DNA of 64,000 nucleotides from an uncultured virus (IMG/VR IMGVR_UViG_3300032268_000759) (Duplodnaviria; Heunggongvirae; Uroviricota; Caudoviricetes): positions 64,001-128,000 of the IMG/VR virus record IMGVR_UViG_3300032268_000759. One strand, 5' to 3'. The notes below the pieces were generated by a model. The model did no database searches. It was not told where the DNA came from and worked only from the letters and a program-made list of their open reading frames with translations. Of this stretch, positions 2-18,961 are shown piece after piece. Made by a program: the position numbers and the translations under genes. The stretch's first letter is position 1. Every line of letters starts with the position of its first letter.

Positions 2-55
2 AAAGGTGTTCGGGCATTTAAATTAAAAAGTGGACCATTTAATGCTAATGTATAA
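2..55 (+). CDS. 3' end of an upstream gene (partial, KGVRAFKLKSGPFNANV*)
   Basis: Open frame from the window edge ending in a TAA that overlaps the next ATG (TAATG). Confidence 0.5.
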   Translation, partial: KGVRAFKLKSGPFNANV

Positions 56-1005
56 TGAATTTACAAAAACTAGTTAAAGAAGTATTAGATGAACAAAAAG
101 TAAAACGTGATAGATGTTTACGTATTGCTGACCGTAAGTTTGATAAACCATCAGCTTATAAATCAGGTGCTGTTGTTCGTTGTCGTCAAGGAGATATTTG
201 GAAAGGTATTAAAGAAGATGCTCATACTGTCACTGAAATTTATGATCAAAATATTATTAATCAAATATTTCAATCTAATTCTGAATTAGCAAGTGTAGGC
301 ACACCTCAACAATACTCTCAATATTTAGATACTATATTTCCTAGTAGTAAAGTAAAAGATATTGTTTATCATGGTACTAATGCTAATGATATTGAAGGTG
401 GTAGGTTAAGATTAAGTAAGGAAGGTGTGTATGGAGAAGGAATTTATGTTCAAACAAATAAAGAATTTACAGGAACATTTGGTTCAAATACACTTTCACT
501 TATTATAGATACTAAAAAATCTTTTTCATTCTATGATAATGATGGCAAACCAAATAAACTATGGTTAACAATTCGTGATAAATACGCGAATATTAAAAAG
601 TTTTATTGGGCTGATATTGCCAAAGAAGAATTTAGAGATGAAATTAAAAAGTTAGGTTATGATTCTATTAAGACAGAAGAAGGTGGTGGTAATGCATACT
701 ATATCCTATTCAATCCAGAACAAATATATATATTAGGCTCTAAACAAGATATTGAAGGATTTAAAAAATCCATTAATAGATTAACTGAAGCTGAAAAAGA
801 AACATTACGAGGTTGGTTTAAACGTTCTGGTCCTAAAGGTAAAGAAGGTGGATGGGTAGATTGCAATGCACCTGATGGAAAAGGAGGATATAAAGCATGT
901 GGTAGAAAAAAAGGTGAAAAACGAGCTAAATATCCATCATGTCGTCCAACACCATCAGCATGTAAACAACCAGGCAAAGGTAAAAAGTGGGGGAAAACAA
1001 AATGA
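55..1005 (+). CDS. Modular putative head-internal protein with central ADP-ribosyltransferase-like domain
   Basis: YHGT...GVYGEGIY...GYDSI...ILFNPEQI resembles the H-Y-x ART fold; flanked by small basic Cys-containing modules; boundaries at VLDE, VTE, LTE. Confidence 0.6.
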   Translation: MNLQKLVKEVLDEQKVKRDRCLRIADRKFDKPSAYKSGAVVRCRQGDIWKGIKEDAHTVTEIYDQNIINQIFQSNSELASVGTPQQYSQYLDTIFPSSKVKDIVYHGTNANDIEGGRLRLSKEGVYGEGIYVQTNKEFTGTFGSNTLSLIIDTKKSFSFYDNDGKPNKLWLTIRDKYANIKKFYWADIAKEEFRDEIKKLGYDSIKTEEGGGNAYYILFNPEQIYILGSKQDIEGFKKSINRLTEAEKETLRGWFKRSGPKGKEGGWVDCNAPDGKGGYKACGRKKGEKRAKYPSCRPTPSACKQPGKGKKWGKTK

Positions 1006-1640
1006 TTAAATTAATAGATATATTAAATGAAGTATTATCTGAAAATGATCCTAAAACAGGTACAGGTAAAAAACCTAAAGGATCAGGACGTCGTTTATAT
1101 ACAGATGAAGATCCTAAAGATACTGTATCTATTAAATTTAAAACTAAAGAAGATATAGTTAATACTTTAAATAAGAAATCATTTAAATCTAAACCTCATA
1201 ATCGTCAATCTCAAATTATTAATGTAATTCATCAACGAGTAAGAGCAGCATACAATAAAGCAAAAGAACCTGAAGTAAAATCTAGATTAAAACGTGCTTT
1301 AGATTATATTGAAAAACGTAAAGAAGCTTCTAAAAAGAAAACAGAACGTTTAAATAAATTAAAAGAAACACCAGATCCACAATCTGGCAAAGCAGCACCT
1401 TATGGTTCAGGATATGCTCCTATTAAAGAATTAGTAACAGACACAGAAGTTATTTGTGATAATTGTGGATGGGAATGGGATATAGCAGATGGTGGAGATG
1501 ATTTATATATTTGTCATAAATGTGGTCATGATAATACTCCAAAACAATTAAATGAAAAATGTTGGAAAGGATATACTCAAAAAGGTATGAAAACAATGTT
1601 TGGTAAAAAATATCCAAATTGTGTAAAAAATAAAAAATAA
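1002..1640 (+). CDS. Modular putative head-internal protein (basic module, CxxC..CxxC zinc ribbon, CWKGY..NCV module)
   Basis: Start moved to ATG 1002 (ATGA overlap); MIKLIDILNE leader; modules separated by LSE, LKE, IKE, LNE. Confidence 0.6.
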   Translation: MIKLIDILNEVLSENDPKTGTGKKPKGSGRRLYTDEDPKDTVSIKFKTKEDIVNTLNKKSFKSKPHNRQSQIINVIHQRVRAAYNKAKEPEVKSRLKRALDYIEKRKEASKKKTERLNKLKETPDPQSGKAAPYGSGYAPIKELVTDTEVICDNCGWEWDIADGGDDLYICHKCGHDNTPKQLNEKCWKGYTQKGMKTMFGKKYPNCVKNKK

Positions 1641-1643
1641 CTT

Positions 1644-1961
1644 ATGATAAAACTTATTAACTTATTAACTGAAGCTAAGGAAAGCTTTGAAACATTTGCT
1701 ACAAAACGTTTAGCAGGTGCTGAAAAAATAGCTGACACCACTCAAGAAGCAGGTGGATTATCTTTATTAACTTATAAACACTATAAAGTTAAATTACCAT
1801 ATTATAAAAAAGCAGCAGCTGGTAAATTAGATAAAGATACTGCTAAAAAGGAATTTGAAGAAACTTTAAAAAGTATATCTTTAGGTATGACCCAAACTCA
1901 ATTCCAAATAGAAGTTGGACGTTTAGAAGTATTAGGTGAATTATTAATAGAAAATAAATAA
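1644..1961 (+). CDS. Hypothetical protein with MIKLINLLTE leader
   Basis: Tightly packed ORF; leader nearly identical to that of the previous gene. Confidence 0.7.
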   Translation: MIKLINLLTEAKESFETFATKRLAGAEKIADTTQEAGGLSLLTYKHYKVKLPYYKKAAAGKLDKDTAKKEFEETLKSISLGMTQTQFQIEVGRLEVLGELLIENK

Positions 1962-1962
1962 T

Positions 1963-2586
1963 ATGTTAAATGTTGATATTCCAAGTTTTAAAGCTTTAGT
2001 TCGCAAATCATACTTTACAAAAAATTCAAAAGATACTGAGATTTTTTTAAATGTGTATGTTTTTGGAGCCCAATCTACATCTGGAAAAATATTAACCTTT
2101 CATGTTATGACTGATGATGGAATGGTTCGTAATAGAGTTCCAATATCAGAAATATATACTAAAATTCCAAAAAATGATATTCCATTCCACTTTAAACAAT
2201 TATGGGATTGTTTCTCTGAAAATGTAGCTATTATAGCTTATGATTTTTTAGCATATCATAAAGCACAAATTGTTTTAAAAGATGGAAGTAAAGTTTGGGG
2301 AAATTATATGTTTACTGTAGATTGGTTTAATAATCCACACAGTGATGAACCTTCAGATTATAAATGTGGTCATATATTTAAAGCTAGTGATGGTTATTTA
2401 TTATGTCAACCTAACAATAGAATATTTTGGAAAGATTCAAATTGGGTAACTAAAAAATTACCTGAAGATCTAAAACAATTTAAAGTAGATACTGAATTAC
2501 CATCAGTTGAAAATCAATCTGATAGATGGGTAACTGAGGATAGTGATTCATTTTATTATAATATGATTAATACTGAAAGTAAATGA
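1963..2586 (+). CDS. Hypothetical phage protein
   Basis: 207-aa ORF packed in the operon; no motif recognised. Confidence 0.7.
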   Translation: MLNVDIPSFKALVRKSYFTKNSKDTEIFLNVYVFGAQSTSGKILTFHVMTDDGMVRNRVPISEIYTKIPKNDIPFHFKQLWDCFSENVAIIAYDFLAYHKAQIVLKDGSKVWGNYMFTVDWFNNPHSDEPSDYKCGHIFKASDGYLLCQPNNRIFWKDSNWVTKKLPEDLKQFKVDTELPSVENQSDRWVTEDSDSFYYNMINTESK

Positions 2587-2843
2587 CCCCATACACAGAC
2601 ATAGAAGTAACAGATAAATATATTATTCGTGAATTTAACGAAAATATAGACCCAATAGAATTAATGTGGCATCGCGATGATGAGCATCGTACTGTTGAAA
2701 TATTAGGTGAAACAAATTGGAAACTACAACTTGATAATAAATTACCGACTTCTATAAATGAGCAAATATTTATTGAAAGACACCAATGGCACCGAGTTAT
2801 TAAAGGAACTGGAACATTAAAACTAAAAATACATAAATCATGA
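2583..2843 (+). CDS. Small cupin-like protein
   Basis: WHRD..H and WHRVIKG His motifs, beta-rich, 86 aa. Confidence 0.5.
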   Translation: MTPYTDIEVTDKYIIREFNENIDPIELMWHRDDEHRTVEILGETNWKLQLDNKLPTSINEQIFIERHQWHRVIKGTGTLKLKIHKS

Positions 2844-3235
2844 AACTATCAGATTTAAGAAAATTAATTAAAGAAGAATTAACTAATATAACTGGAATGC
2901 CAGTTGAAGAAGTAGCTCACAAATTAGAAAAAGATGAGTTAGGTAAATTCTATGTGGTAACAAAACCCACAGATATGAAAGATGAGAATATGATTGAAAC
3001 TAATATTCTTGAATTTGCTAAGAAAATTAAATCAGGTGAAATAGATGAAGCTCGAATCATGGGTGTATATGAAAAATCAGGTTCAGCTAAAACTAGAGCT
3101 AAAGAATTAATGAAAGAAATTGAAGATGAATTAAACGAACTTCAATTAACTATGGATGAATATAGAACTAAAAAATCAGAAATAGAAGAGAAAAAAGCAA
3201 AAGCAGCAGAAATTATTAAAAAATATAAAAAATAA
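2840..3235 (+). CDS. Hypothetical protein with MKLSDLRKLIKEEL leader and C-terminal coiled coil
   Basis: ORF with overlapping start and stop codons. Confidence 0.7.
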   Translation: MKLSDLRKLIKEELTNITGMPVEEVAHKLEKDELGKFYVVTKPTDMKDENMIETNILEFAKKIKSGEIDEARIMGVYEKSGSAKTRAKELMKEIEDELNELQLTMDEYRTKKSEIEEKKAKAAEIIKKYKK

Positions 3236-4569
3236 TGAAATTAACTGATATATATAAAGCTATTAAGGAAAAAATGAGTGAAGAAGATATTCTTGCTACA
3301 TTAAAAAAACAATTAGATCCTAAAAGTACAGTTAAAGTAAATAAACCTGTAGTTAAGCCAAATATTATCTATACTGATAAAGCAAATGAAGAAGTAGCTG
3401 AAGCCTATAGACAATACAATGAAGAAGCTGTTGATCTTGATAAGGAAATAATTGACAATACTACTGGAAGACCAATTGTAACATATATCCTTCCAAAAAA
3501 TGGTGATGGTTCATATAATGTTATTTATAATGATGCTACTACAGGTGTGATATATGTAAGTAATGATGCTTGGGATGAAATTAATAATTTAAATCAACCA
3601 AATATGAATGAAGATGAGACAGAAGAATTATCTGAAGCATATGTCCCTGATAATATTAAGAAGTTTGCAAAACAAAAAGGTGCTAGCTCATTAGTAAACA
3701 AAATAGCAGGTTGGGCTGAAAAAGCTGGCAAAGGTATTCGTGGTGGAACAGCAATTGGAAAAAATTATAGTACTCTTATTTTAGATTTATCATATCAAGA
3801 CGGAGCTATTCGTATTAATCTTGATGACTATACAATTGAATTATATGGTGAAGAAGTTAACAGCTTTAATGAATTCAAATCAGTTTTAGCAAAAGAACCA
3901 ATGGATAAAATGGATATGAATGAAGAATTCACACGTATACAAAAATTAGCAGGTGTAATCACAGAAAGTCAATATAAAGAAAAATTAAATGAAATAACTA
4001 TGAAAAAACAAATTTTAAATGAAGAATTCAAACGCATGCAAAAACTAGCAGGCATTATTAATGAAAATCAAATCAATGAAGTTGAAGTAGATAAAGAAAA
4101 ACTAATGCCTATATTTGATGAAGTATTTAATGATAAAATACAAGACTATTCATCACTAGTAGGTACAGATCCTATTTATGATGGTTTAAATAATGTGATC
4201 AAAGATCCAAGTGTTAAACAAGCAATATTTGATTGGGCTTATTTAATAACAACTGAGGATGAAGATGACGAAGAAGAAGTAATAGATATGTTTGGAGGTT
4301 ATGTTAGTGATGGTGTTGATTATAAAATCATGAAAACTTTTACCCCTCAATTAGCTAAAAACTTAATAAAAGCAGGATTTACTTATGATAAAGATGAGGA
4401 TATATGGACTATCCCTCAACCATACTTAGATAAAATAGATAGTTCATTTAACTACTCAGATGGCGCTACATCTTATGGTATTATTTGGGATGTTTGGGGT
4501 GTAGATTATGATACAAGTCCTAGAGAAAATATAGGCTCTTATTTAGAAGACGCTGCCCAAGAATTATAA
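3235..4569 (+). CDS. Acidic modular putative head-internal protein with two RxQKLAG[IV]I motifs
   Basis: 444-aa ORF; motif shared with the C-terminus of the scaffold protein; many (I/L/M)-x-E sites. Confidence 0.65.
   Translation: MKLTDIYKAIKEKMSEEDILATLKKQLDPKSTVKVNKPVVKPNIIYTDKANEEVAEAYRQYNEEAVDLDKEIIDNTTGRPIVTYILPKNGDGSYNVIYNDATTGVIYVSNDAWDEINNLNQPNMNEDETEELSEAYVPDNIKKFAKQKGASSLVNKIAGWAEKAGKGIRGGTAIGKNYSTLILDLSYQDGAIRINLDDYTIELYGEEVNSFNEFKSVLAKEPMDKMDMNEEFTRIQKLAGVITESQYKEKLNEITMKKQILNEEFKRMQKLAGIINENQINEVEVDKEKLMPIFDEVFNDKIQDYSSLVGTDPIYDGLNNVIKDPSVKQAIFDWAYLITTEDEDDEEEVIDMFGGYVSDGVDYKIMKTFTPQLAKNLIKAGFTYDKDEDIWTIPQPYLDKIDSSFNYSDGATSYGIIWDVWGVDYDTSPRENIGSYLEDAAQEL
3919..4065 (+). repeat. 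Two imperfect 48-bp direct repeats encoding NEEFxRxQKLAG[VI]IxE
   Basis: 3919-3966 versus 4018-4065. Confidence 0.85.
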
Positions 4570-7536: not shown

Positions 7537-7543
7537 TATTTAT
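7536..7543 (+). promoter_or_regulatory. Putative late promoter motif ATATTTAT (first of at least 16 gene-boundary copies)
   Basis: Also at 10348, 12251, 13767, 18935, 19640, 23469, 27186, 32466, 34607, 35546, 37322, 37908, 38963, 41127 and 51909, each upstream of a start codon. Confidence 0.65.
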
Positions 7544-7558
7544 ATGTAAATAAACAAT

Positions 7559-8221
7559 ATGAGCAAAATAAATATCCGCCAAATCATTCAAGAAGAATTA
7601 AATATAGCATTAGATGAAATGGCTCGTGCTAAAGTAATTTACACACTTAAAGACAAATCATCACTAGAAAAAGTAGTAGATGCTGCTAAAGGTAATACTA
7701 AAATGGCACTACAGTATTTGTTAGATAAAGGTGAAATGGCTATATCTGACTTAGCTAAAGAACTTAAAAAAGATGCAGCTACATTTAACAATCCAGGTTT
7801 TAGAAAATTAATGTCAGATTTATCTGATAAAAATATAGTAAGTATCTCAGCTGGTACTCCAAGTATGTCTACTCCATCAGTTACTCCTGCCCCTAAAATG
7901 GCTAAAGTAAGTACACCAACAGATGGTGAAGAAGATTTTGAAAAAGAAATGCCATCAGATATTGATGTAATGGCTGGTGAAAAAGAATTTGGAGATGCTA
8001 CAGCAGATACATTAGGAGCAGAAGAAAAAGCTAAATTTGAAAAATTAAATACTGCTATTAGAAATAAAGTAGCTAAATTAGAAAAAATGTCTGTTAAAGA
8101 TAGAATTAAATCTCCTGATTTAGCAGTAGTGAAACAAATCATTAATAAACCTGAAGTTAAAAAACTATTTAGATCTAAAGGTATTGATGTAATGGATTTA
8201 GTTAGTAGTGTGATAGGTTAA
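7559..8221 (+). CDS. Hypothetical, putative head-internal protein (IRQIIQEEL leader)
   Basis: 220-aa ORF after a late motif; leader resembles that of 2840. Confidence 0.6.
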   Translation: MSKINIRQIIQEELNIALDEMARAKVIYTLKDKSSLEKVVDAAKGNTKMALQYLLDKGEMAISDLAKELKKDAATFNNPGFRKLMSDLSDKNIVSISAGTPSMSTPSVTPAPKMAKVSTPTDGEEDFEKEMPSDIDVMAGEKEFGDATADTLGAEEKAKFEKLNTAIRNKVAKLEKMSVKDRIKSPDLAVVKQIINKPEVKKLFRSKGIDVMDLVSSVIG

Positions 8222-8223
8222 TC

Positions 8224-8772
8224 ATGAAGATTAAAATTGAATATATTATTATAGTCCTACTTGTAGCAGCTTTGCTGCTACAATGGACTTGTTCTGGTTC
8301 TAAAGTAGAAGGTGTTACCACAACAACAACAGAAATTAAGTGGGACACTATTAAAACTGAAGTACCTAAATATGTTCCTCGGTGGAGTACACGCACTGAA
8401 ATAGATATCGACACCTTCACCACACCAATAGATACTCTCGCTATACTTACAGATTATTACGCTATATATGGTTATTCTGATACTGTAGGTACTGATAGTG
8501 TTCAAATAGTAATACATGATACAGTGTCAACAAATAAAATAGTTTCACGTAGTATAAAATACAATATTATGTATCCTACTATTACTATTACAAAAGAAAC
8601 AGTTATAAACAAACCACAGTTCTTTTATGGCATTGGTTTAGGTACTAAATCAATAGGTCCAGAAGTGTTATATAAATCAAAAAAGAACCATGCATATGGA
8701 TTAGGTATAGGTGTAAACAGTGATTTACAACCTAACTTTTCCTTCAGAATGTATTGGTCAATAGGTAAATGA
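8224..8772 (+). CDS. Membrane-anchored exported protein (possible spanin-like lysis accessory)
   Basis: N-terminal hydrophobic helix, Thr-rich stalk with five D-(S/T)-(I/L/V) motifs, C-terminal amphipathic beta strands. Confidence 0.5.
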   Translation: MKIKIEYIIIVLLVAALLLQWTCSGSKVEGVTTTTTEIKWDTIKTEVPKYVPRWSTRTEIDIDTFTTPIDTLAILTDYYAIYGYSDTVGTDSVQIVIHDTVSTNKIVSRSIKYNIMYPTITITKETVINKPQFFYGIGLGTKSIGPEVLYKSKKNHAYGLGIGVNSDLQPNFSFRMYWSIGK

Positions 8773-10346
8773 GTCAAGATATAAAACAAATCATCAGGCA
8801 AGAATACCTGAATTGTGCCAGTGACCCTGCACATTTCATGCGTAAATATTGTAATATACAGCATCCACAACGTGGTCGTGTTATATTTAATTTATACCCA
8901 TTTCAAGGTAAGGTATTAAATCTATGGAAAGAAAATCCATACTCTATTATCTTAAAATCAAGACAGTTAGGTATTTCTACTTTAGCTGCAGGATATTCTT
9001 TATGGTTAATGTTATTCCATAAAGATAAAAACGTATTATGTTTAGCTACAAAACAAGAAACAGCTAAAAATATGGTTACAAAGGTAAAGTTTATGTATGA
9101 AAACTTACCTTCATGGTTAAAAGTAACAGCTGAAGAAAATAATAAATTAACACTTAGATTAACTAATGGCTCCCAAATTAAAGCAGTATCGGCAGCAGGT
9201 GATGCAGGTCGTTCAGAAGCTGTATCATTACTTATTGTTGATGAGGCAGCATTTATTGATAATATAGGTGAGATTTGGGCTTCTGCTCAACAAACCTTAG
9301 CAACTGGTGGTGGTGCAATAGTATTATCTACTCCATATGGTACAGGTAATTGGTTTCATCAAACTTGGGTTAAAGCTGAATCTAATGAAAATCAATTTCT
9401 TCCTATTAAATTACCATGGTATGTACATCCTGAACGTAATGAAGAATGGAGAAAAATGCAAGATGAGTTATTAGGTGATCCTAGATTAGCAGCGCAAGAA
9501 TGTGATTGTGATTTTAGTACATCTGGTGATGTTGTATTTTATCCTGAGTTTATAGAATTTTATGACCAAACATATATCCAAGAACCACTTGAAAGAAGAG
9601 GAGTAGATAAAAATTTATGGGTATGGGAACCGGCTGATTGGGGTCGTTCATATATGGTTGTAGCTGACGTTGCTAGAGGTGACTCAAAAGATTACTCAGC
9701 ATTCCATGTGATTGATATAGAATCTAATACACAAGTAGCAGAATATAAAGGTCAATTAAGTACAACTGAATTTGGACATTTACTAGTAGGTATAGCTACT
9801 GAATATGCTGAGGCATTATTGGTAGTAGAAAATGCAAACATAGGTTGGTCAACATTACAAACAATATTGGAACGAGGATACAGAAATCTATATTTTTCAT
9901 CTAAAAGTGATAAAGCAGATTCTTCTACGTATTTTGATAAGTATGCAGATAATAGTAATATGACAGCTGGATTTACAAATTCATTAAAAACCAGACCAAT
10001 GGTGATTAATAAATTTAGAGAATATGTAAGTGAAAAAAGTATTATTATTAGATCAAGACGTTTACTTGAAGAAATGAAAGTGTTCATTTGGAAAAATGGT
10101 AGAGCAGAAGCTCAATCAGGCTATAATGATGATTTGGTTATGAGTATGGGTATTGGAATGTATGTTCGTGATACTGCATTAAGATTTAATCAAAATAGTG
10201 TAGATTTAACTAAAGCTGTAATAAATAACTTTACAAAATCAACATTCAACGCTGGGGCATATTCAAGTAATACCTCATATTCTCCAACAGCAGATTGGAA
10301 TATGGATGTGAACGGACAAAAAGAAGACATTAAATGGTTACTATAA
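8769..10346 (+). CDS. terL: Terminase large subunit (T4 gp17-like)
   Basis: LYPFQ, KSRQLGIS Walker A, LLIVDEAA Walker B, STPYG, nuclease DVARG..D and NDDLVM. Confidence 0.95.
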   Translation: MSQDIKQIIRQEYLNCASDPAHFMRKYCNIQHPQRGRVIFNLYPFQGKVLNLWKENPYSIILKSRQLGISTLAAGYSLWLMLFHKDKNVLCLATKQETAKNMVTKVKFMYENLPSWLKVTAEENNKLTLRLTNGSQIKAVSAAGDAGRSEAVSLLIVDEAAFIDNIGEIWASAQQTLATGGGAIVLSTPYGTGNWFHQTWVKAESNENQFLPIKLPWYVHPERNEEWRKMQDELLGDPRLAAQECDCDFSTSGDVVFYPEFIEFYDQTYIQEPLERRGVDKNLWVWEPADWGRSYMVVADVARGDSKDYSAFHVIDIESNTQVAEYKGQLSTTEFGHLLVGIATEYAEALLVVENANIGWSTLQTILERGYRNLYFSSKSDKADSSTYFDKYADNSNMTAGFTNSLKTRPMVINKFREYVSEKSIIIRSRRLLEEMKVFIWKNGRAEAQSGYNDDLVMSMGIGMYVRDTALRFNQNSVDLTKAVINNFTKSTFNAGAYSSNTSYSPTADWNMDVNGQKEDIKWLL

Positions 10347-10359
10347 TATATTTATAAAC

Positions 10360-12240
10360 ATGGCAGATACCAACATATTTAATAGATTAAGACGATTATT
10401 TTCAACAGATGTTATCATTAGAAACACTGGAGGAAACGAATTACGAGTAGTGGATGTGAACGCTATTCAAAAATCAGGTGAAATAGAAACTAACTCATTA
10501 TTAGATAGATTCAATAGGATATATACAACAAGTCCTACCTCACTATATGGTTACCAACAAAACTTTAACTACCAAACACTACGTACTCAGTTATATTCAG
10601 AGTATGATGTTATGGATGGTGATGCTATTATTGCTTCAGCATTAGATATTATAGCAGATGAATCTACACTTAAAAATGAACAAGGTGAAGTACTTCATAT
10701 TAGATCAAGTGATGAAGATGTTCAAAAAATACTATATAATTTATTCTATGATGTATTAAATATAGAATTTAATTTATGGTCATGGATTCGCCAAATGTGT
10801 AAATATGGTGATTTCTTCTTAAAATTAGAAATAGCAGAAAAGTTTGGTGTATATAATGTTATACCATACTCTGCTTATCATATTGAAAGACAAGAACTAT
10901 ATGACCGTGAAAATCCATCATCAGTAAGATTTAGATTTGATCCAGAAGGTTTATCAGCGGGTGATTATGGTTACTATAACATGCCTGGTTCAAACCAAGG
11001 TAATTCTATTTATTTTGATAACTATGAAATAGCACATTTTCGCCTAATATCAGATACCAACTTTTTACCATATGGTAGAAGTTATATTGAGCCAGCTCGT
11101 AAGTTATTTAAACAATATGCATTAATGGAAGACGCGATGTTAATTCATCGTATTGTTCGCGCTCCTGAAAAACGTGTATTTTATATTAATGTAGGTGGAA
11201 TTGCACCAGCAGAAGTTGAAGCGTTCATGCAAAAAACTGTTAATACCATGAAACGTACTCCATATATGGATCCTAAAACTGGTGATTATAACTTAAAATA
11301 TAACATGCAAAACATGTTAGAAGATTTTTATATTCCAGTTCGTGGTAATGATCAAGCAACAAAAATTGATACTACTAAAGGATTAGATTATGATGGTATT
11401 AAAGACGTTGAATATTTACGTGATAAATTATTTGCTGCTTTAAAAGTACCAAAAGCGTTTATGGGTTATGAAAAAGACTTAACTGGTAAAGCAACTTTAG
11501 CAGCAGAGGATATTAGATTTGCTCGTACAATTGAGCGTATTCAACGTATCATATTATCAGAATTATATAAAATAGGATTAGTACATTTATATACTCAAGG
11601 TTATACTGAAGAGTCATTAACTAACTTTGAATTAAACTTAACAACTCCATCAATCATATATGATCAAGAACGTATTGCATTAATGAAAGAAAAAGTTGAA
11701 TTAGCTAATACTATAATGGAAGCACAATTATTACCATCAGATTGGGTTTATGATAATATATTCCACTTTAGTGATGATCAATATTCAGAATATAGAGATT
11801 TAATTCGTGAAGATGCTAAACGTAACTTTAGATTAACACAGATTAAAGAAGAAGGTAATGATCCATTAGAAACAGGTAAATCATATGGTACACCACACGA
11901 TTTAGCTTATTTATATGGTAATACTAAAACTCACGGGACTGTACCTGATGGGTATGATGAAAAAACACCACTAGGTCGTCCTAAAGAAAAAGCAAGTAGT
12001 ATAAACACACAAGACAATCCATTAGGAAGAGATAGATTAGGTGTTAATGATATGAAAGTTGATGACCAACCAACAGCAGGCCGTACAGCATTTAAAGGAG
12101 GATCAGCATTAGCTTTAGAAAATAACAAAACTGAATTTCATAAAAATAAAATTGTGTTAGAAGGTTTAAAAAAGAAATTAGTATTTGAAAATGATAAGGC
12201 AGCAGGTACATATCTAGATGAAAATCTACTTAAAGATTAA
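10360..12240 (+). CDS. Portal protein (T4 gp20-like)
   Basis: LMEDAMLIHRIVRAPEKRVFYINVG, EDFYIP.RG, ALKVPK; follows terminase. Confidence 0.95.
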   Translation: MADTNIFNRLRRLFSTDVIIRNTGGNELRVVDVNAIQKSGEIETNSLLDRFNRIYTTSPTSLYGYQQNFNYQTLRTQLYSEYDVMDGDAIIASALDIIADESTLKNEQGEVLHIRSSDEDVQKILYNLFYDVLNIEFNLWSWIRQMCKYGDFFLKLEIAEKFGVYNVIPYSAYHIERQELYDRENPSSVRFRFDPEGLSAGDYGYYNMPGSNQGNSIYFDNYEIAHFRLISDTNFLPYGRSYIEPARKLFKQYALMEDAMLIHRIVRAPEKRVFYINVGGIAPAEVEAFMQKTVNTMKRTPYMDPKTGDYNLKYNMQNMLEDFYIPVRGNDQATKIDTTKGLDYDGIKDVEYLRDKLFAALKVPKAFMGYEKDLTGKATLAAEDIRFARTIERIQRIILSELYKIGLVHLYTQGYTEESLTNFELNLTTPSIIYDQERIALMKEKVELANTIMEAQLLPSDWVYDNIFHFSDDQYSEYRDLIREDAKRNFRLTQIKEEGNDPLETGKSYGTPHDLAYLYGNTKTHGTVPDGYDEKTPLGRPKEKASSINTQDNPLGRDRLGVNDMKVDDQPTAGRTAFKGGSALALENNKTEFHKNKIVLEGLKKKLVFENDKAAGTYLDENLLKD

Positions 12241-12277
12241 TATTTTTTATATATTTATAACAAAACTTACTTATTAA

Positions 12278-13135
12278 ATGAGTATTATCAAACATAATAA
12301 ATTCAAAAACTCAGGTATATTATTTGAATTGTTAGTTAGACAAATAACTAATGATACATTATCTGGGAAAGAATCTCCGGCTATTGATATTCTTAAAAAT
12401 AGCTTTGTTAAGTCAGAGTTAGGAAAAGAATATAAATTATATGAGACATTATTTAAGCAAACACAAATCAGCGAAACTAAAGCTAATATTATCATTGAAG
12501 AAGTATTAAAAGCATCTAAAAAACTTAATAGATCATCATTAAAAAGAGATAAATATAATCTAATTAATGAGATTAAAAAACATTATGATTTAGAAGAATT
12601 TTTTAAACATAAACTACCTAATTATAAATCTCAAGCTGCTCTATATACATTGATTGAAGTATATAATAATCAAGAAACAGTAAATCCTAATCAAGTTATA
12701 TCTAATAAAATTACATTATTAGAATCATTAACTAAACTCCCAGTTAAAGAAAAAGAGATTAGAGAAGATGTATTAAATGAATTTAAAACTTATGATAAAG
12801 ATTTACGTTTATTAACATACCAGGTATTATTAGAAAAATTTAATAATAAATATGGTTCATTAAATGATAATCAAAAATTAATATTACGTGAATTTATAAA
12901 TGCTGTTGATAATCCATCACGCTTAAAAGATTTCTACAACCAAAAAATAGTTGAAGTTAAAACTCAATTAACTAAGTCAATAGAAAAAATTAATGATAAA
13001 GTAACTCAGATTAAATTAACTGAAGTGTTATCATTAATTAATGAAGTAGATAAAACCTCTAAAGTGTCTAATGATGATGTAATTAATTTATTACAATATT
13101 ATTCATTAGTTGAAGAATTAAAGGCAGTAAAATAA
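12278..13135 (+). CDS. Head-module protein, function unknown
   Basis: 285-aa helical ORF between portal and protease. Confidence 0.7.
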   Translation: MSIIKHNKFKNSGILFELLVRQITNDTLSGKESPAIDILKNSFVKSELGKEYKLYETLFKQTQISETKANIIIEEVLKASKKLNRSSLKRDKYNLINEIKKHYDLEEFFKHKLPNYKSQAALYTLIEVYNNQETVNPNQVISNKITLLESLTKLPVKEKEIREDVLNEFKTYDKDLRLLTYQVLLEKFNNKYGSLNDNQKLILREFINAVDNPSRLKDFYNQKIVEVKTQLTKSIEKINDKVTQIKLTEVLSLINEVDKTSKVSNDDVINLLQYYSLVEELKAVK

Positions 13136-13767
13136 TGGATAGACTAAAAAACGCAGTTAAAAAGGTATTAAAAGAAATGTCTATGACTGGTGGTGGAACA
13201 GCAGGTGCTGCTTTCTCTCCTGGTGTAGGTATGAATTATGCTACTCCTAAAGCATTTAAAAAGAAAAAACTTAAAGAGGTTAGTGGCTATAAAGGAATTG
13301 ATGGCTCATTTGATACAGCTCTTCAATGGATTTGGTTTTTTGGTGGTAAAGAATTACTACAAAATAAATTAGAAATTTATAGTACAAGCCAAAACTACTT
13401 TAGATTTAAAAAAGCTATGGAAAATGGTAAAATTACTATCCAAGACTTAGATAAAGCTACAAAAGGAGAACATGGACAAACCGGTGGTATACCTTTTTCA
13501 CAAACAGCAGTTTGGACACAAGATATAAAACCATACTTAGATAGAGTTAAACAAGATAAAATTAATGATTTAAATATTGATTTAGAAGAAACTAAAACTC
13601 CATACGGTACAGGTAACTTAGGCCCAGGCCCAAAAGCAACAGAACAAGGTGTTAAAGATAATTACTATGTTAAAGCATTTGGTTTTAAACTTGTTGACAG
13701 AAAAAAATTAGCAAAAGCATCTAAAACAATAGATTATAAAGATCTATGGGGTGCTACATATAAATAA
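13135..13767 (+). CDS. Putative head-internal protein carrying a major-capsid N-arm-like peptide
   Basis: TGGGTAGAAFSPGVG versus capsid TGAGTAGAAFTAGVG. Confidence 0.6.
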   Translation: MDRLKNAVKKVLKEMSMTGGGTAGAAFSPGVGMNYATPKAFKKKKLKEVSGYKGIDGSFDTALQWIWFFGGKELLQNKLEIYSTSQNYFRFKKAMENGKITIQDLDKATKGEHGQTGGIPFSQTAVWTQDIKPYLDRVKQDKINDLNIDLEETKTPYGTGNLGPGPKATEQGVKDNYYVKAFGFKLVDRKKLAKASKTIDYKDLWGATYK

Positions 13768-15242: not shown

Positions 15243-15857
15243 ATGAAGCAGGTATTAATAGAAACCCAATTATTTCAAATATCTCCTAAACAATTAAGTG
15301 AAGGAGTTAAATCAACATCAGGTAATCCTATTGTTGAAGGAATATTAGCTACAGCTGAAGTAAAAAACGGTAATGGACGCTATTATAAAAGAGAATTATG
15401 GGAACGTGAAATAGACAAATACCTATCTAGTGTTAAAGAAAATAGAGCACTTGGTGAATTAGACCACCCAGAATCATCGATAATCAACCTTAAAAACGTG
15501 TCTCATAATATTAGAGGCTTATGGTGGGATGGTGATAAGGTAATGGGTAAAATCGAAATACTTCCAACTCCTTCAGGTAACATATTAAAAGCATTAATTG
15601 AAAACAACATTACTGTAGGTGTTTCATCACGTGGTATGGGTAGTTTAAAACAATTAGGTGAAACAATGGAAGTACAAGATGACTTTGAATTGTTATGCTG
15701 GGATTTTGTTTCAACTCCATCAAATCCAGGTTCATGGATGAAACCAATTAATGGAATGATGAATGAAGGATTAATATCAACATTAAATCCATATGCTAAA
15801 GTAAATTCTGTTATTACAGAAATATTATGTGCTAATGGATCTTGTCCAATATTTTAA
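15243..15857 (+). CDS. Prohead protease (T4 gp21-like)
   Basis: NGNGRYY, ALGELDHP, GVSSRGMGS, WDFVSTPS. Confidence 0.93.
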   Translation: MKQVLIETQLFQISPKQLSEGVKSTSGNPIVEGILATAEVKNGNGRYYKRELWEREIDKYLSSVKENRALGELDHPESSIINLKNVSHNIRGLWWDGDKVMGKIEILPTPSGNILKALIENNITVGVSSRGMGSLKQLGETMEVQDDFELLCWDFVSTPSNPGSWMKPINGMMNEGLISTLNPYAKVNSVITEILCANGSCPIF

Positions 15858-16054: not shown

Positions 16055-17152
16055 ATGACAAACAGAGATTTGTTAAAAGAGGCTATTGCCGATGCTAAAG
16101 CTATCAAGGATACTGCTATAGCAAACGCTAAATCTGCTTTAGAAGAATCTTTTACACCTCATTTGAAGTCTATGTTAGCTGCTAAAATCAATGAAATGGA
16201 CAACTTCTATGAAGAAGATGATACCATGGAAGAAGTAGAAACAGACTTAAATGAAATGAAAGATGAAGATGAAATGGATGAAGTAAAAAAAGAAACTTAT
16301 TCAGAAGCAACCGAAGAAATGGATGAAGAAATCAATTTAGACGAATTGCTAGCTGAGTTAGAATTAGAAGAAACTGTAACTGAAGCTAAAGAAGAAATGG
16401 AAGCTGAAGAAACAGAAGAAGAAGGTGAAGAAGAAGAAGGTGAAGAAGAAATTGATCTTGAAAACATGTCAGAAGAAGATTTGAAAAACTTTATTGAAAA
16501 CGTAATTGAAGATATGATCACAGATGGCGAAATTGAAGCTGGTGATGGTATGGAAGGCGAAGAAGAAGTTGAAGATGAAACTGAAGAAGAAATCAATATT
16601 GATGAAATCTTAGCTGAACTAAAAAGTGAAAAAGTTGAAGAAGAAATGAGTGCTGTAATGGGTGCTTCTGCAACTGCTGGATTAGCTGAACTAGCTAAAA
16701 TGTTTAAAAAAGGGCTTATTTCTCTTAATGACTTTTTAGAAAAAGTAGCAGCTGCATCAGCTCCAGGCTTTTCTAAAGGTATGAATGAAGAAGAAAAAAT
16801 GAAAGACGAGTTAAAAGAAGCATATGCAGTAGTAAAAACTTTACACTCAGAACTTAATGAAATCAATTTATTAAACGCTAAATTACTTTACACTAATAAG
16901 ATTTTCAAATCGAAAAACTTAACTGAAACTCAGAAAGTAAAAGTATTAACAGCATTTGATAAAGCTACTTCTAAAAAAGAAGCACAATTAGTTTATGAAA
17001 CTTTATTAGGAGGATTAAAATCAGAAACTAAATCTCCAATTAAAGAAAATTTAGGTAGAGCATCTAAATCAGCAGGTGTTTCCGTTAAAAATCCTATTGT
17101 AGAATCAAATGAAATGGTCAATAGATTCCAAAAATTAGCTGGTATTATTTAA
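16055..17152 (+). CDS. Prohead core scaffolding protein (T4 gp22-like role)
   Basis: Very acidic, helical, located between protease and major capsid genes; ends RFQKLAGII. Confidence 0.8.
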   Translation: MTNRDLLKEAIADAKAIKDTAIANAKSALEESFTPHLKSMLAAKINEMDNFYEEDDTMEEVETDLNEMKDEDEMDEVKKETYSEATEEMDEEINLDELLAELELEETVTEAKEEMEAEETEEEGEEEEGEEEIDLENMSEEDLKNFIENVIEDMITDGEIEAGDGMEGEEEVEDETEEEINIDEILAELKSEKVEEEMSAVMGASATAGLAELAKMFKKGLISLNDFLEKVAAASAPGFSKGMNEEEKMKDELKEAYAVVKTLHSELNEINLLNAKLLYTNKIFKSKNLTETQKVKVLTAFDKATSKKEAQLVYETLLGGLKSETKSPIKENLGRASKSAGVSVKNPIVESNEMVNRFQKLAGII

Positions 17153-17179: not shown

Positions 17180-18859
17180 ATGAACAACATTCAATCTCTA
17201 TTAGAAGGTGCTAATCCTTGGAAAGCGTTACAAACAGACGCTACCCGATTAGCAAACAAATGGGCTAAAACTGGCCTATTAGAAGGTTTAAAAACCGAAA
17301 CTGACAAAAACAATATGTCAATGATGCTTGAAAATCAAGCAAAACAATTAGTAATGGAATCATCACAAACTGGTGCTGGTACCGCAGGTGCTGCATTTAC
17401 AGCAGGTGTTGGTGAGCAGTGGGCAGGTGTAGCATTACCATTAGTACGTAAGGTATTTGGTCAAATCGCTGCGAAAGAATTCGTTAGTGTTCAACCAATG
17501 AATTTACCTTCAGGTCTAGTGTTCTTCTTAGATTTCCAATATGGAACAACTAAATCTCCATTTAGAGCAGCTGCTGGTGCAGGTTTCTACGGAACTGAAT
17601 CTATGTATGGTAATACCAATCCAGGAGAAACAGCTAATCCTAATGGTGGTTTATATGGTGCTGGTCGTTTCTCGTATTCAATCAACAACACTTCATCATT
17701 CTCATCTGCTACTGTAGCAACAGCTTCATGGTCAGATTTTAACTTTGATTCTAACTACTCAGCTTCAGTAGTTGCGGGTACTGGTACTCCAAACTGGAAA
17801 AAAGTAACTATTACTTTACCATCAAACACAGATTTTAATGGTGTACGTGCATTTACAGTAGTTTCACAATCAGGTTTCCAAGCTGCTGATATTCAAGCTG
17901 CTTACACAACTACAACTGGTACTGTATTCAGTGGTACAACTGGAACTGTTACTTTCTTAGTAACTGGTTCATTAACTGGTCAAGTTGCTACATTAGCAAA
18001 TGTAACTGCTTCATTCCAATTACAACCAACTGATCAATTACGTGGTGATTTTGAAGATGGTAACACTAGCTTAAATGCTACTAACAACCCAATCACAATC
18101 CCTGAAGTAAATGTTAAAATGAAGTCAGAGCCAATTGTTGCTAAGACTCGTAAGTTAAAAGCTGTATGGACTCCTGAGTTTGCACAAGATTTGAACGCTT
18201 ACCATGCATTAGATGCTGAAGCTGAATTAACTTCAATTATGAGTGAGTACATCTCATTAGAGATTGACTTAGAAATCATGGATATGTTGATTGAAAATGC
18301 TTCTGCAGGTACTGAGTACTGGTCAGCAATTAACAACCAACAATTTGATGGTAGTACATTTGTACAACAATCATCTACAACTGGTGGTTTCTACAATACT
18401 CAAGGTGGTTGGTTCCAAACTTTAGGAACTAAATTCCAAAAGTTAAGTAACAAAATCCATCAAAAGACTTTACGCGGTGGCGCTAACTTCTTAGTATGTT
18501 CTCCATCTGTAGCTACAATATTGGAATCAATTCCAGGATTTGCTGCTACTTCAAATGGTGATGCTGCTAAAATGAACTATGCTTTTGGTGTACAGAAAAT
18601 GGGTAGCTTAAACACTCAATACGAAGTTTACAAGAATCCATATATGCTTGAAAGTACCATCTTGATGGGCTTCAAAGGTAAGCAATTCTTGGAAACAGGA
18701 GCGGTATTTGCTCCATACATTCCGTTAATCATGACTCCATTAGTATACGATCCAGATACATTTACTCCACGTAAAGGTCTATTAACTCGTTATGCTAAGA
18801 AAATGGTTCGTCCTGAATTCTACGGTAAAGTATACGTAAGTGGTTTAAGTAGCATCTAA
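17180..18859 (+). CDS. Major capsid protein (T4 gp23-like)
   Basis: VQPMNLPSGLVF, AKTRKLKAVWTPEFAQDLNAYH, YIPL, PRKGLLTRY. Confidence 0.96.
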   Translation: MNNIQSLLEGANPWKALQTDATRLANKWAKTGLLEGLKTETDKNNMSMMLENQAKQLVMESSQTGAGTAGAAFTAGVGEQWAGVALPLVRKVFGQIAAKEFVSVQPMNLPSGLVFFLDFQYGTTKSPFRAAAGAGFYGTESMYGNTNPGETANPNGGLYGAGRFSYSINNTSSFSSATVATASWSDFNFDSNYSASVVAGTGTPNWKKVTITLPSNTDFNGVRAFTVVSQSGFQAADIQAAYTTTTGTVFSGTTGTVTFLVTGSLTGQVATLANVTASFQLQPTDQLRGDFEDGNTSLNATNNPITIPEVNVKMKSEPIVAKTRKLKAVWTPEFAQDLNAYHALDAEAELTSIMSEYISLEIDLEIMDMLIENASAGTEYWSAINNQQFDGSTFVQQSSTTGGFYNTQGGWFQTLGTKFQKLSNKIHQKTLRGGANFLVCSPSVATILESIPGFAATSNGDAAKMNYAFGVQKMGSLNTQYEVYKNPYMLESTILMGFKGKQFLETGAVFAPYIPLIMTPLVYDPDTFTPRKGLLTRYAKKMVRPEFYGKVYVSGLSSI

Positions 18860-18914: not shown

Positions 18915-18961
18915 ATTTATTCAATATTTTATTAATATTTATATCAAATAAATTGTTATAT

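Follow-up and report, generated by a model that had tools for sequence, protein, structure and literature searches.

Which proteins does a T4-type phage carry inside its head, and how are they chosen? In T4 the choice is known from one 10-residue tag, whose receptor in the prohead core is undefined. The question is raised again by seven open reading frames (ORFs; ORF1 to ORF7, nucleotides 55-4569) at the start of a 64,000-nucleotide stretch of DNA from an uncultured virus (henceforth the window), which comprises bases 64001-128000 of one 154,840-bp contig, IMG/VR record IMGVR_UViG_3300032268_000759. The original prediction, made from the letters of the window, held that most of these ORFs begin with short leaders ending in a prohead-protease-like site, that the same tripeptide separates unrelated modules within them, and that they are polyproteins packaged in the head, cut into independent effectors and injected with the DNA as a swappable payload. 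The genome is that of a T4-superfamily phage (154.8 kb, about 30% G+C, nearly all genes on one strand) whose composition is rich in Lys, Ile, Leu and Glu, and the window encodes a T4-type head module with terminase, portal, protease and major capsid protein (Table 1). Its nearest cultured relatives, and the only close ones, are the Flavobacterium immuto phages (56% capsid identity); capsid identity to T4, cyanophages and others is about 31%. Bacteroidota are the host phylum of this group of T4-type phages of Flavobacteria, of which IMG/VR holds hundreds of related contigs. Here we describe the leader tags and their portability, the site pattern that they share with canonical substrates of the prohead protease, and the coincidence of such sites with module junctions. 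On the strength of these sequence patterns and of analogy with T4, the leader-bearing proteins of the cluster and about ten more are probably head cargo, analogues of the T4 internal proteins (IPs) and of Alt that are processed by a gp21-type protease.

The leaders are short, helical and end in hydrophobic-x-Glu. They begin five of the seven ORFs at 55-4569, where those quoted in the original prediction were all found (ORF starts 55, 1002, 1644, 2840 and 3235), as were those at 7559, 13135 and 13793; outside the cluster about ten leaders occur nearby, and seven tagged genes lie directly upstream of the window. The bare tripeptide is weak evidence when taken alone, since [LIV]-x-E ending at residues 8-14 is barely above chance: it is seen in 37 of the 214 ORFs of the genome, where about 25 would be expected. 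A fuller leader pattern, hydrophobic-x-x-hydrophobic-hydrophobic-x-E inside the first 16 residues, occurs 14 times in the genome against 4.6 expected (p 2.6e-4) and clusters by the head genes: between 52 and 83 kb of the genome, 12 of 40 ORFs carry it, and 2 of 174 elsewhere (Fisher 3e-8). Across 80 related loci, counting one representative per protein family, the pattern is present in 58 of 723 against 20 expected (p 1e-12), and 69 protein families have at least one tagged member. The motif of one leader class, class A, is found in 61 distinct N-terminal and 31 internal contexts in 500,000 residues, which makes it about 29-fold denser at N-termini.

Orthologous cargo bears different leader classes, so that classes have been swapped between relatives. 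Orthologues of ORF3 carry three classes on one cargo, with the site present in 18 of 19 distinct N-termini; those of the gene at genome 63705 carry either class A or a 10-residue class, and those of ORF1 carry four classes, including one that copies the tail of the scaffold protein (see below). The 7559 protein has a class-A leader on 6 of 6 distinct homologue N-termini, and the ORF4 family stays leaderless, with the pattern in 0 of 46 orthologue N-termini. Leaders of the same class differ in synonymous codons and are preceded by unrelated DNA; selection on the leader therefore acts on the peptide, and a DNA-level repeat or recombination cassette is ruled out as its origin. We conclude that the leaders behave as portable, interchangeable tags of at least four classes, borne by about 15 genes per genome. 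As an idea, the swappable payload of the original prediction is not new, swappable tagged internal proteins having been established for T-even phages (PMC3012670, PMC9026906).

The spacing of the leaders resembles that of the T4 capsid-targeting sequence (CTS), in which residues 4 and 7 target and residues 8 and 10 process, the gp21 motif being L/I-x-E (PMC9026906). According to the T4 record, IPII and IPIII have a 10-residue tag with Tyr4, Phe7, Ile8 and Glu10. The leaders of ORF2 and ORF3 have Leu4, Ile/Leu7, Leu8 and Glu10, and are thus hydrophobic at the targeting and processing positions, and the 12-residue leader class has the ORF2/ORF3 pattern shifted by two residues. In a related contig (L052:5850-8680), at least seven small paralogues (96-129 aa) are encoded in tandem, each with an identical 7-residue leader that ends in I-T-E and has the length of the T4 Alt propeptide.

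Sites of the same type recur in the proteins that a T4-like prohead protease would be expected to cut. The protease encoded at 15243, which had been called gp21-like, is a homologue of T4 gp21 (phrog_207 2e-56; PDB 5jbl 2.7e-15), and alignment to the T4 gp21 structure (5jbl) shows that the catalytic His and Ser are present. Its N-terminal L-I-E|T site is invariant in about 60 relatives and is shared by T4 gp21, and further conserved sites lie C-terminal to the catalytic domain. For the major capsid protein, alignment pairs residue 70 with residue 15 of mature T4 gp23 (gp23*) and so places maturation at an invariant site ending in Glu60; we therefore predict the maturation site near this residue, and four sites, Glu60 and three more in the predicted propeptide, are invariant in about 40 relatives. 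In the scaffold protein, hydrophobic-x-E sites number 27; at 7.4 per 100 aa they are 4-fold enriched over the genome mean (1.8), and the site density of T4 gp22 is likewise high. Judged by these alignments and densities, hydrophobic-x-E is the site type that marks the predicted canonical protease substrates of the phage group: protease, capsid protein and scaffold. The small head protein at 13135 links this site to a leader, since the residues after its leader site repeat the N-terminus predicted for the mature capsid protein and, in 9 relatives, vary in step with the capsid protein of the same phage; the leader site thus appears tied to the capsid maturation site. Between the portal gene and that of the small head protein, a 285-aa protein (12278-13135) has 6.7 hydrophobic-x-E sites per 100 residues; with this nearly scaffold-like density, it is probably a second degradable core protein.

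The leader class that copies the scaffold tail is class B. The last 14 residues of the scaffold are conserved in 61 relatives, with a site directly before them. A profile of this tail only, run on a target set of 420,000 residues, matches ORF7 in two internal places (E 7.7e-8) as well as the N-termini of genome ORFs 53119 and 59007 and of immuto gene 188; the tag is recognised in cargo at E 1e-7 to 1e-6, with marginal values for the weaker copies. The exact tag-coding pattern is found in at least 120 IMG/VR loci, 97 of 120 with T4-type capsid or protease marks; it stands at the C-terminus of 100 scaffold-like proteins, at the N-terminus of 19 proteins and internally in 1. In the cargo copies a further site always follows directly after the tag, and in the scaffold copies the tag is the end of the protein. 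Residues 256-362 of ORF7 and the standalone 53119 protein, starting at Met1 of the latter, are paralogous, which indicates that the internal junction of ORF7 is a former leader and that the fusion occurred there. The C-terminus of T4 gp22 was also considered as a match to the class-B tag and bears no resemblance to it, so that mimicry of the tail is not a T4 feature; no paper in the literature searched contains the class-B motif string.

Aligned orthologues gain, lose, fuse and split modules at (L/I)-x-E more often than composition would predict, a check that the original prediction had proposed: among 207 non-redundant proteins from the 80 related loci, 128 of 644 homology breakpoints had [LI]-x-E within 2 residues, against 59 expected (2.2-fold, z 9.6). 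Control tripeptides in which Asp, Lys, Gln or Asn replaced Glu gave 0.7-1.1-fold, and the junction preference is therefore specific to Glu with a hydrophobic residue two positions earlier. A bootstrap over linked groups gave an enrichment of 1.3-3.1, and the ratio was 2.3 without the largest group. ORF2 illustrates the pattern: it has sites at Glu10, 14, 122, 143 and 185, and the three that had been named as internal boundaries (Glu122, Glu143 and Glu185) lie at homology breakpoints 119, 142 and 184. In relatives, its modules stand alone or form part of proteins of 547-985 aa.

ORF1 shows what such a junction can enclose. Its Glu54 and Glu245 lie at homology breakpoints 54 and 244, and the insert between them matches the Pfam family ART-PolyVal (PF18760; 1.2e-8, 36.3 bits against a cut-off of 31.2). 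In an AlphaFold2 (AF2) model, the core of this ADP-ribosyltransferase (ART) has a pLDDT above 90, and Foldseek matches the model to the ADP-ribosylating anti-CRISPR 6kyf, to PARP catalytic domains and to diphtheria toxin; a match to the cyanophage A4 pre-ejectosome, with an rmsd of 18.9 over helices, was treated as noise. The triad residues are conserved in the aligned sequences (H106 in 44 of 45, Y131 in 37 of 45 and E222 in 38 of 45), and from family, fold and triad we predict that the insert is an intact-looking H-Y-E ADP-ribosyltransferase. Standalone homologues of the ART start with leaders too. The two basic, Cys-rich modules that flank the insert together probably make up the Pfam domain DUF5872, so that the ART would sit inside a single domain family. 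Because the insert splits the domain, ORF1 scores 19 bits, under the cut-off of 27.5, and an uninterrupted relative reaches 28.9 bits across both halves. In relatives the two modules are adjoining, are separated by other inserts of 150-450 residues, or are split into two ORFs, the second of which then has its own leader; in one relative, the DUF5872 parts share a protein of 738 residues with NUDIX and zinc-ribbon modules. In the literature searched, DUF5872 appears just in a gene table of an algal virus.

A zeta-toxin-like P-loop kinase (genome 55476-56300, L164:5476-6300; Pfam 1.8e-8) bears a 10-residue leader, and the cargo domains of the phage group are of conflict-effector type: ART-PolyVal, zeta-toxin-like kinase and NUDIX. 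Several of the modules that had been described as unrelated are, however, probably parts of one Pfam domain, and to call the small modules independent effectors was an over-reading, since the two basic modules of ORF1 appear to form one DUF5872. The overall interpretation is in this way supported in part, for the portable tags, the CTS-like spacing, the substrate sites and the junctions, and not for the small modules as independent effectors.

Several genes of tagged proteins also share an upstream element with structural genes. The motif TATTTATA on the coding strand has 27 of its 50 genome occurrences at most 40 nt upstream of a start codon, in a genome of which about 5% is non-coding, and it occurs mostly in the structural-gene region, with copies ahead of several tagged genes, of tail genes, of the portal gene and of the 12278 head core gene among others. 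By its position it is likely a promoter element. The T4 late promoter TATAAATA, of which TATTTATA is the complement reading, shows no enrichment on that strand (35 copies, 25 expected). Tagged genes are found between those of the protease and the scaffold in some relatives.

Taken together, these patterns suggest the following course of events. The tagged proteins would be made with the structural proteins, TATTTATA being common to several of their genes and to the portal and tail genes. A short N-terminal helix would dock each protein in the assembling prohead core, class B at the site used by the scaffold tail. The gp21-type protease would then cut after hydrophobic-x-Glu, removing the tag and probably severing multi-module proteins at their junctions, and the released products, an ART and small basic Cys-rich modules among them, would remain in the head alongside the DNA and may be delivered into the host together with it. 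For injection and effector action, the inference draws on the T4 precedent and the types of domain.

Several observations weigh against this reading. The T4 motif is short, and hydrophobic-x-E is common in an AT-rich genome; two of the seven cluster ORFs (1963-2586 and 2583-2843) have no leader, either here or in any relative. The junction sites of ORF1 fall in predicted long helices and not in loops. The low number of sites in the ART core (44, with 92 expected) speaks for the reading but is a statistic that ignores shared descent, and over all tagged proteins no depletion was found (47 against 39). One large module-sharing network dominates the breakpoint sample, and, taken singly, just 11 of the 36 linked groups whose difference is nonzero lie above expectation. 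The large terminase, which in T4 is not a core protein, begins with a class-A-like helix; its N-terminal hydrophobic-x-E site is kept in just 4 of 16 relatives and is absent in the window, and the helix may represent a different use of a similar structure, such as small-terminase binding. Some tagged proteins of relatives are nucleotide-metabolism enzymes with no obvious reason for being packaged, and the literature searched, immuto papers included, contained no virion proteome of this phage group and no paper with biochemical or structural measurements on it.

Might the tagged proteins enter the prohead for assembly only, as accessory core, scaffold-like or charge-neutralising proteins in the manner of T4 gp67, gp68 and the internal peptides, to be degraded or retained without a host role and without any injected effector payload? 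Such a role would suit modules that are in many cases small, basic and Cys-rich (ORF1 and ORF2 have a pI of about 9.5) and belong to no enzymatic family, the position of 13135 and 13793 inside the head-gene block, and a class-B tag that copies part of the scaffold. We nevertheless think it unlikely, given that neither the intact-looking ART of ORF1 nor the NUDIX and zeta-toxin-like kinase domains of relatives have an evident part in assembly, that these enzyme domains match domains of predicted injected proteins (PMC5512222), and that the cargo set turns over fast between relatives, unlike core assembly parts.

The leaders and junctions might also have nothing to do with the head, being ordinary helical N-caps and linkers of cytoplasmic modular proteins, or tags for other partners, that are neither packaged nor cut. 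The Glu-specific junction preference, the alignment and co-variation of the 13135 site with the capsid maturation site, a site-flanked tag identical to the scaffold tail and the exchange of leader classes on the same cargo would all be left unexplained, and we regard this account as quite improbable even though predicted helices hold the ORF1 sites, an N-terminus of this kind also occurs on the terminase, metabolic enzymes are among the tagged proteins and the tripeptide alone is near chance. Almost no credence attaches to an origin of the pattern in composition or in a DNA element repeated at the starts of genes: a genome with 30% G+C, rich in Lys, Ile, Leu and Glu, does yield the bare tripeptide freely (37 against 25), but the significant enrichment and clustering of the strict pattern, the synonymous codons and unrelated upstream DNA, and the conservation and swapping of tags across hundreds of metagenomic relatives contradict it.

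How far does packaging by tag, as proposed here, go beyond known systems? Like this phage, T4 has, in IPI-III, a homologous protease, a tag of about 10 residues, unrelated and fast-evolving cargo, and gene turnover; in T4 it is gp21 that removes the tag (Mullaney and Black, 1996, via PMC9026906 and PMC3012670). Unlike the T4 IPs, the present system has leaders of at least four classes, spread over about 15 genes per genome, tag-like internal junctions, a scaffold-tail tag and a Bacteroidota host, and Pfam and PHROG scans of the seven ORFs gave no match to an IP or Alt family, so that homology of the cargo to T4 IPI-III or Alt was not found. Alt, which T4 packages in its head and trims with gp21, is like ORF1 an ADP-ribosyltransferase of a T4-type phage that starts with a short propeptide-like leader, and is cut at both ends, as the ORF1 ART has sites on both sides; it belongs to the R-S-E clade, whereas that of ORF1 is of the H-Y-E type and is inserted in DUF5872. 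Polyvalent proteins, after which the ART family is named, are mosaics of effector domains in a late or packaging context that were predicted to be injected (PMC5512222). They likewise join disparate effector-type domains in one polypeptide, as ORF1 joins an ART to DUF5872, but often, though not universally, carry their own zincin-like peptidase, which is predicted to process them; here the junctions bear the head-protease motif, and no peptidase family was found in the scanned proteins of this phage and its relatives. In phiKZ, 201phi2-1 and SPN3US, a gp21-related protease cuts many head-internal proteins of the inner body or ejection type after Glu at several places, with redundant propeptide sites (PMC9026906, PMC5694885). 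The phiKZ-type motif is S/A-x-E, the propeptides are long, and neither a short portable leader nor a scaffold-tail copy has been described for them. In the C-terminal coat-binding helices of the scaffolds of P22 and other phages and in encapsulin cargo-loading peptides, a short terminal peptide docks inside an HK97-fold shell. Docking of this type could by analogy explain the class-B tag, which here is N-terminal or internal on cargo and flanked by sites. The literature searched describes no Bacteroidota phage group in which several classes of tag replace one another on about 15 genes of each genome, no tag-like junctions inside polyproteins and no tag that copies the scaffold tail.

The phage group would thus extend a known mechanism, the targeting tag of T4 IPs, and not found one. 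Its dozens of cargo families bear several tags that are interchangeable, and it also has a scaffold-tail tag that points to a concrete docking site and natural polyproteins whose junctions bear the protease motif. A broader proposition, that the heads of this very abundant aquatic group of T4-type phages are general protein-delivery containers addressed by an interchangeable code of clip-off peptides, one of them mimicking the scaffold tail, in which cargo evolves by fusing and splitting at these peptides and polyproteins are cut by the head protease and injected, we put forward tentatively, at somewhat short of even confidence. If the reading as tagged head cargo is confirmed, sequence would suffice to list the payload of abundant Bacteroidota phages of fresh and marine waters, candidates for early-acting enzymes of counter-defence would be at hand, including an ART that folds like a known anti-CRISPR, and phage engineering would gain new portable packaging tags.

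Table 1. Features of the window discussed in the text (window coordinates; residue numbers refer to the encoded protein).
Feature	Coordinates	Strand	Details
ORF1, 316 aa	55..1005	+	leader, residues 1-13 (55-93)
ORF1 DUF5872 N-half	94-216	+	residues 14-54
ORF1 inserted H-Y-E ADP-ribosyltransferase (predicted)	238-789	+	residues ~62-245
ORF1 DUF5872 C-half	790-1002	+	residues 246-316
ORF2, 212 aa, pI 9.5	1002..1640	+	10-aa T4-CTS-like leader, then four modules
ORF2 modules		+	residues 15-122, 123-143, 144-185 (zinc ribbon), 186-212; hydrophobic-x-E sites between
ORF3, 105 aa	1644..1961	+	10-aa leader (1644-1673)
ORF4, 207 aa	1963..2586	+	no leader; most conserved gene of the cluster
ORF5, 86 aa	2583..2843	+	none of the described leader classes
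ORF6, 131 aa	2840..3235	+	12-aa class-A leader (2840-2875); helical Glu/Lys-rich body
ORF7, 444 aa, acidic	3235..4569	+	class-A-like leader (3235-3270), N-module, C-module
ORF7 internal scaffold-tail tags	3925-3966; 4024-4065	+	residues 231-244; residues 264-277
TATTTATA copies	7537-7544, 10349-10356, 12252-12259, 18936-18943 and others	coding	
220-aa protein	7559..8221	+	class-A leader; directly upstream of terminase
Large terminase	8769-10346		
Portal	10360-12240		
Small head protein	13135..13767	+	leader, residues 1-14 (13135-13176)
Head-module protein, 482 aa	13793..15241	+	12-aa leader; conserved internal class-A motif near residues 347-360
gp21-type prohead protease	15243..15857	+	phrog_207; T4 gp21 structure 5jbl
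Scaffold protein, 365 aa	16055..17152	+	last 14 residues, 17108-17149
Major capsid protein, gp23 homologue	17180..18859	+	predicted propeptide, residues 1-60 (17180-17359)

The remaining proteins of the cluster are less readily classified. ORF2 and the modules flanking the ART of ORF1 are strongly basic, and Pfam, PHROG and protein-atlas searches gave no recognisable family for ORF3, ORF4, ORF5, ORF6 and the modules of ORF7. For ORF4, the one match was to phrog_3704, with none in Pfam or the protein atlas; the PHROG label "ferredoxin" is dubious. The immuto orthologues of ORF3 and ORF4 are genes 189 and 190 of MW353175 (L001:9763-10721), and no support was found for the names given to them there (tRNA(Ile2) agmatinyltransferase; phosphoribosylaminoimidazole synthetase or ferredoxin). 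Next to the tagged kinase at genome 55476 lie two leaderless genes, one for a primase and one for a PD-(D/E)XK nuclease, so that tagged and untagged genes are interleaved.

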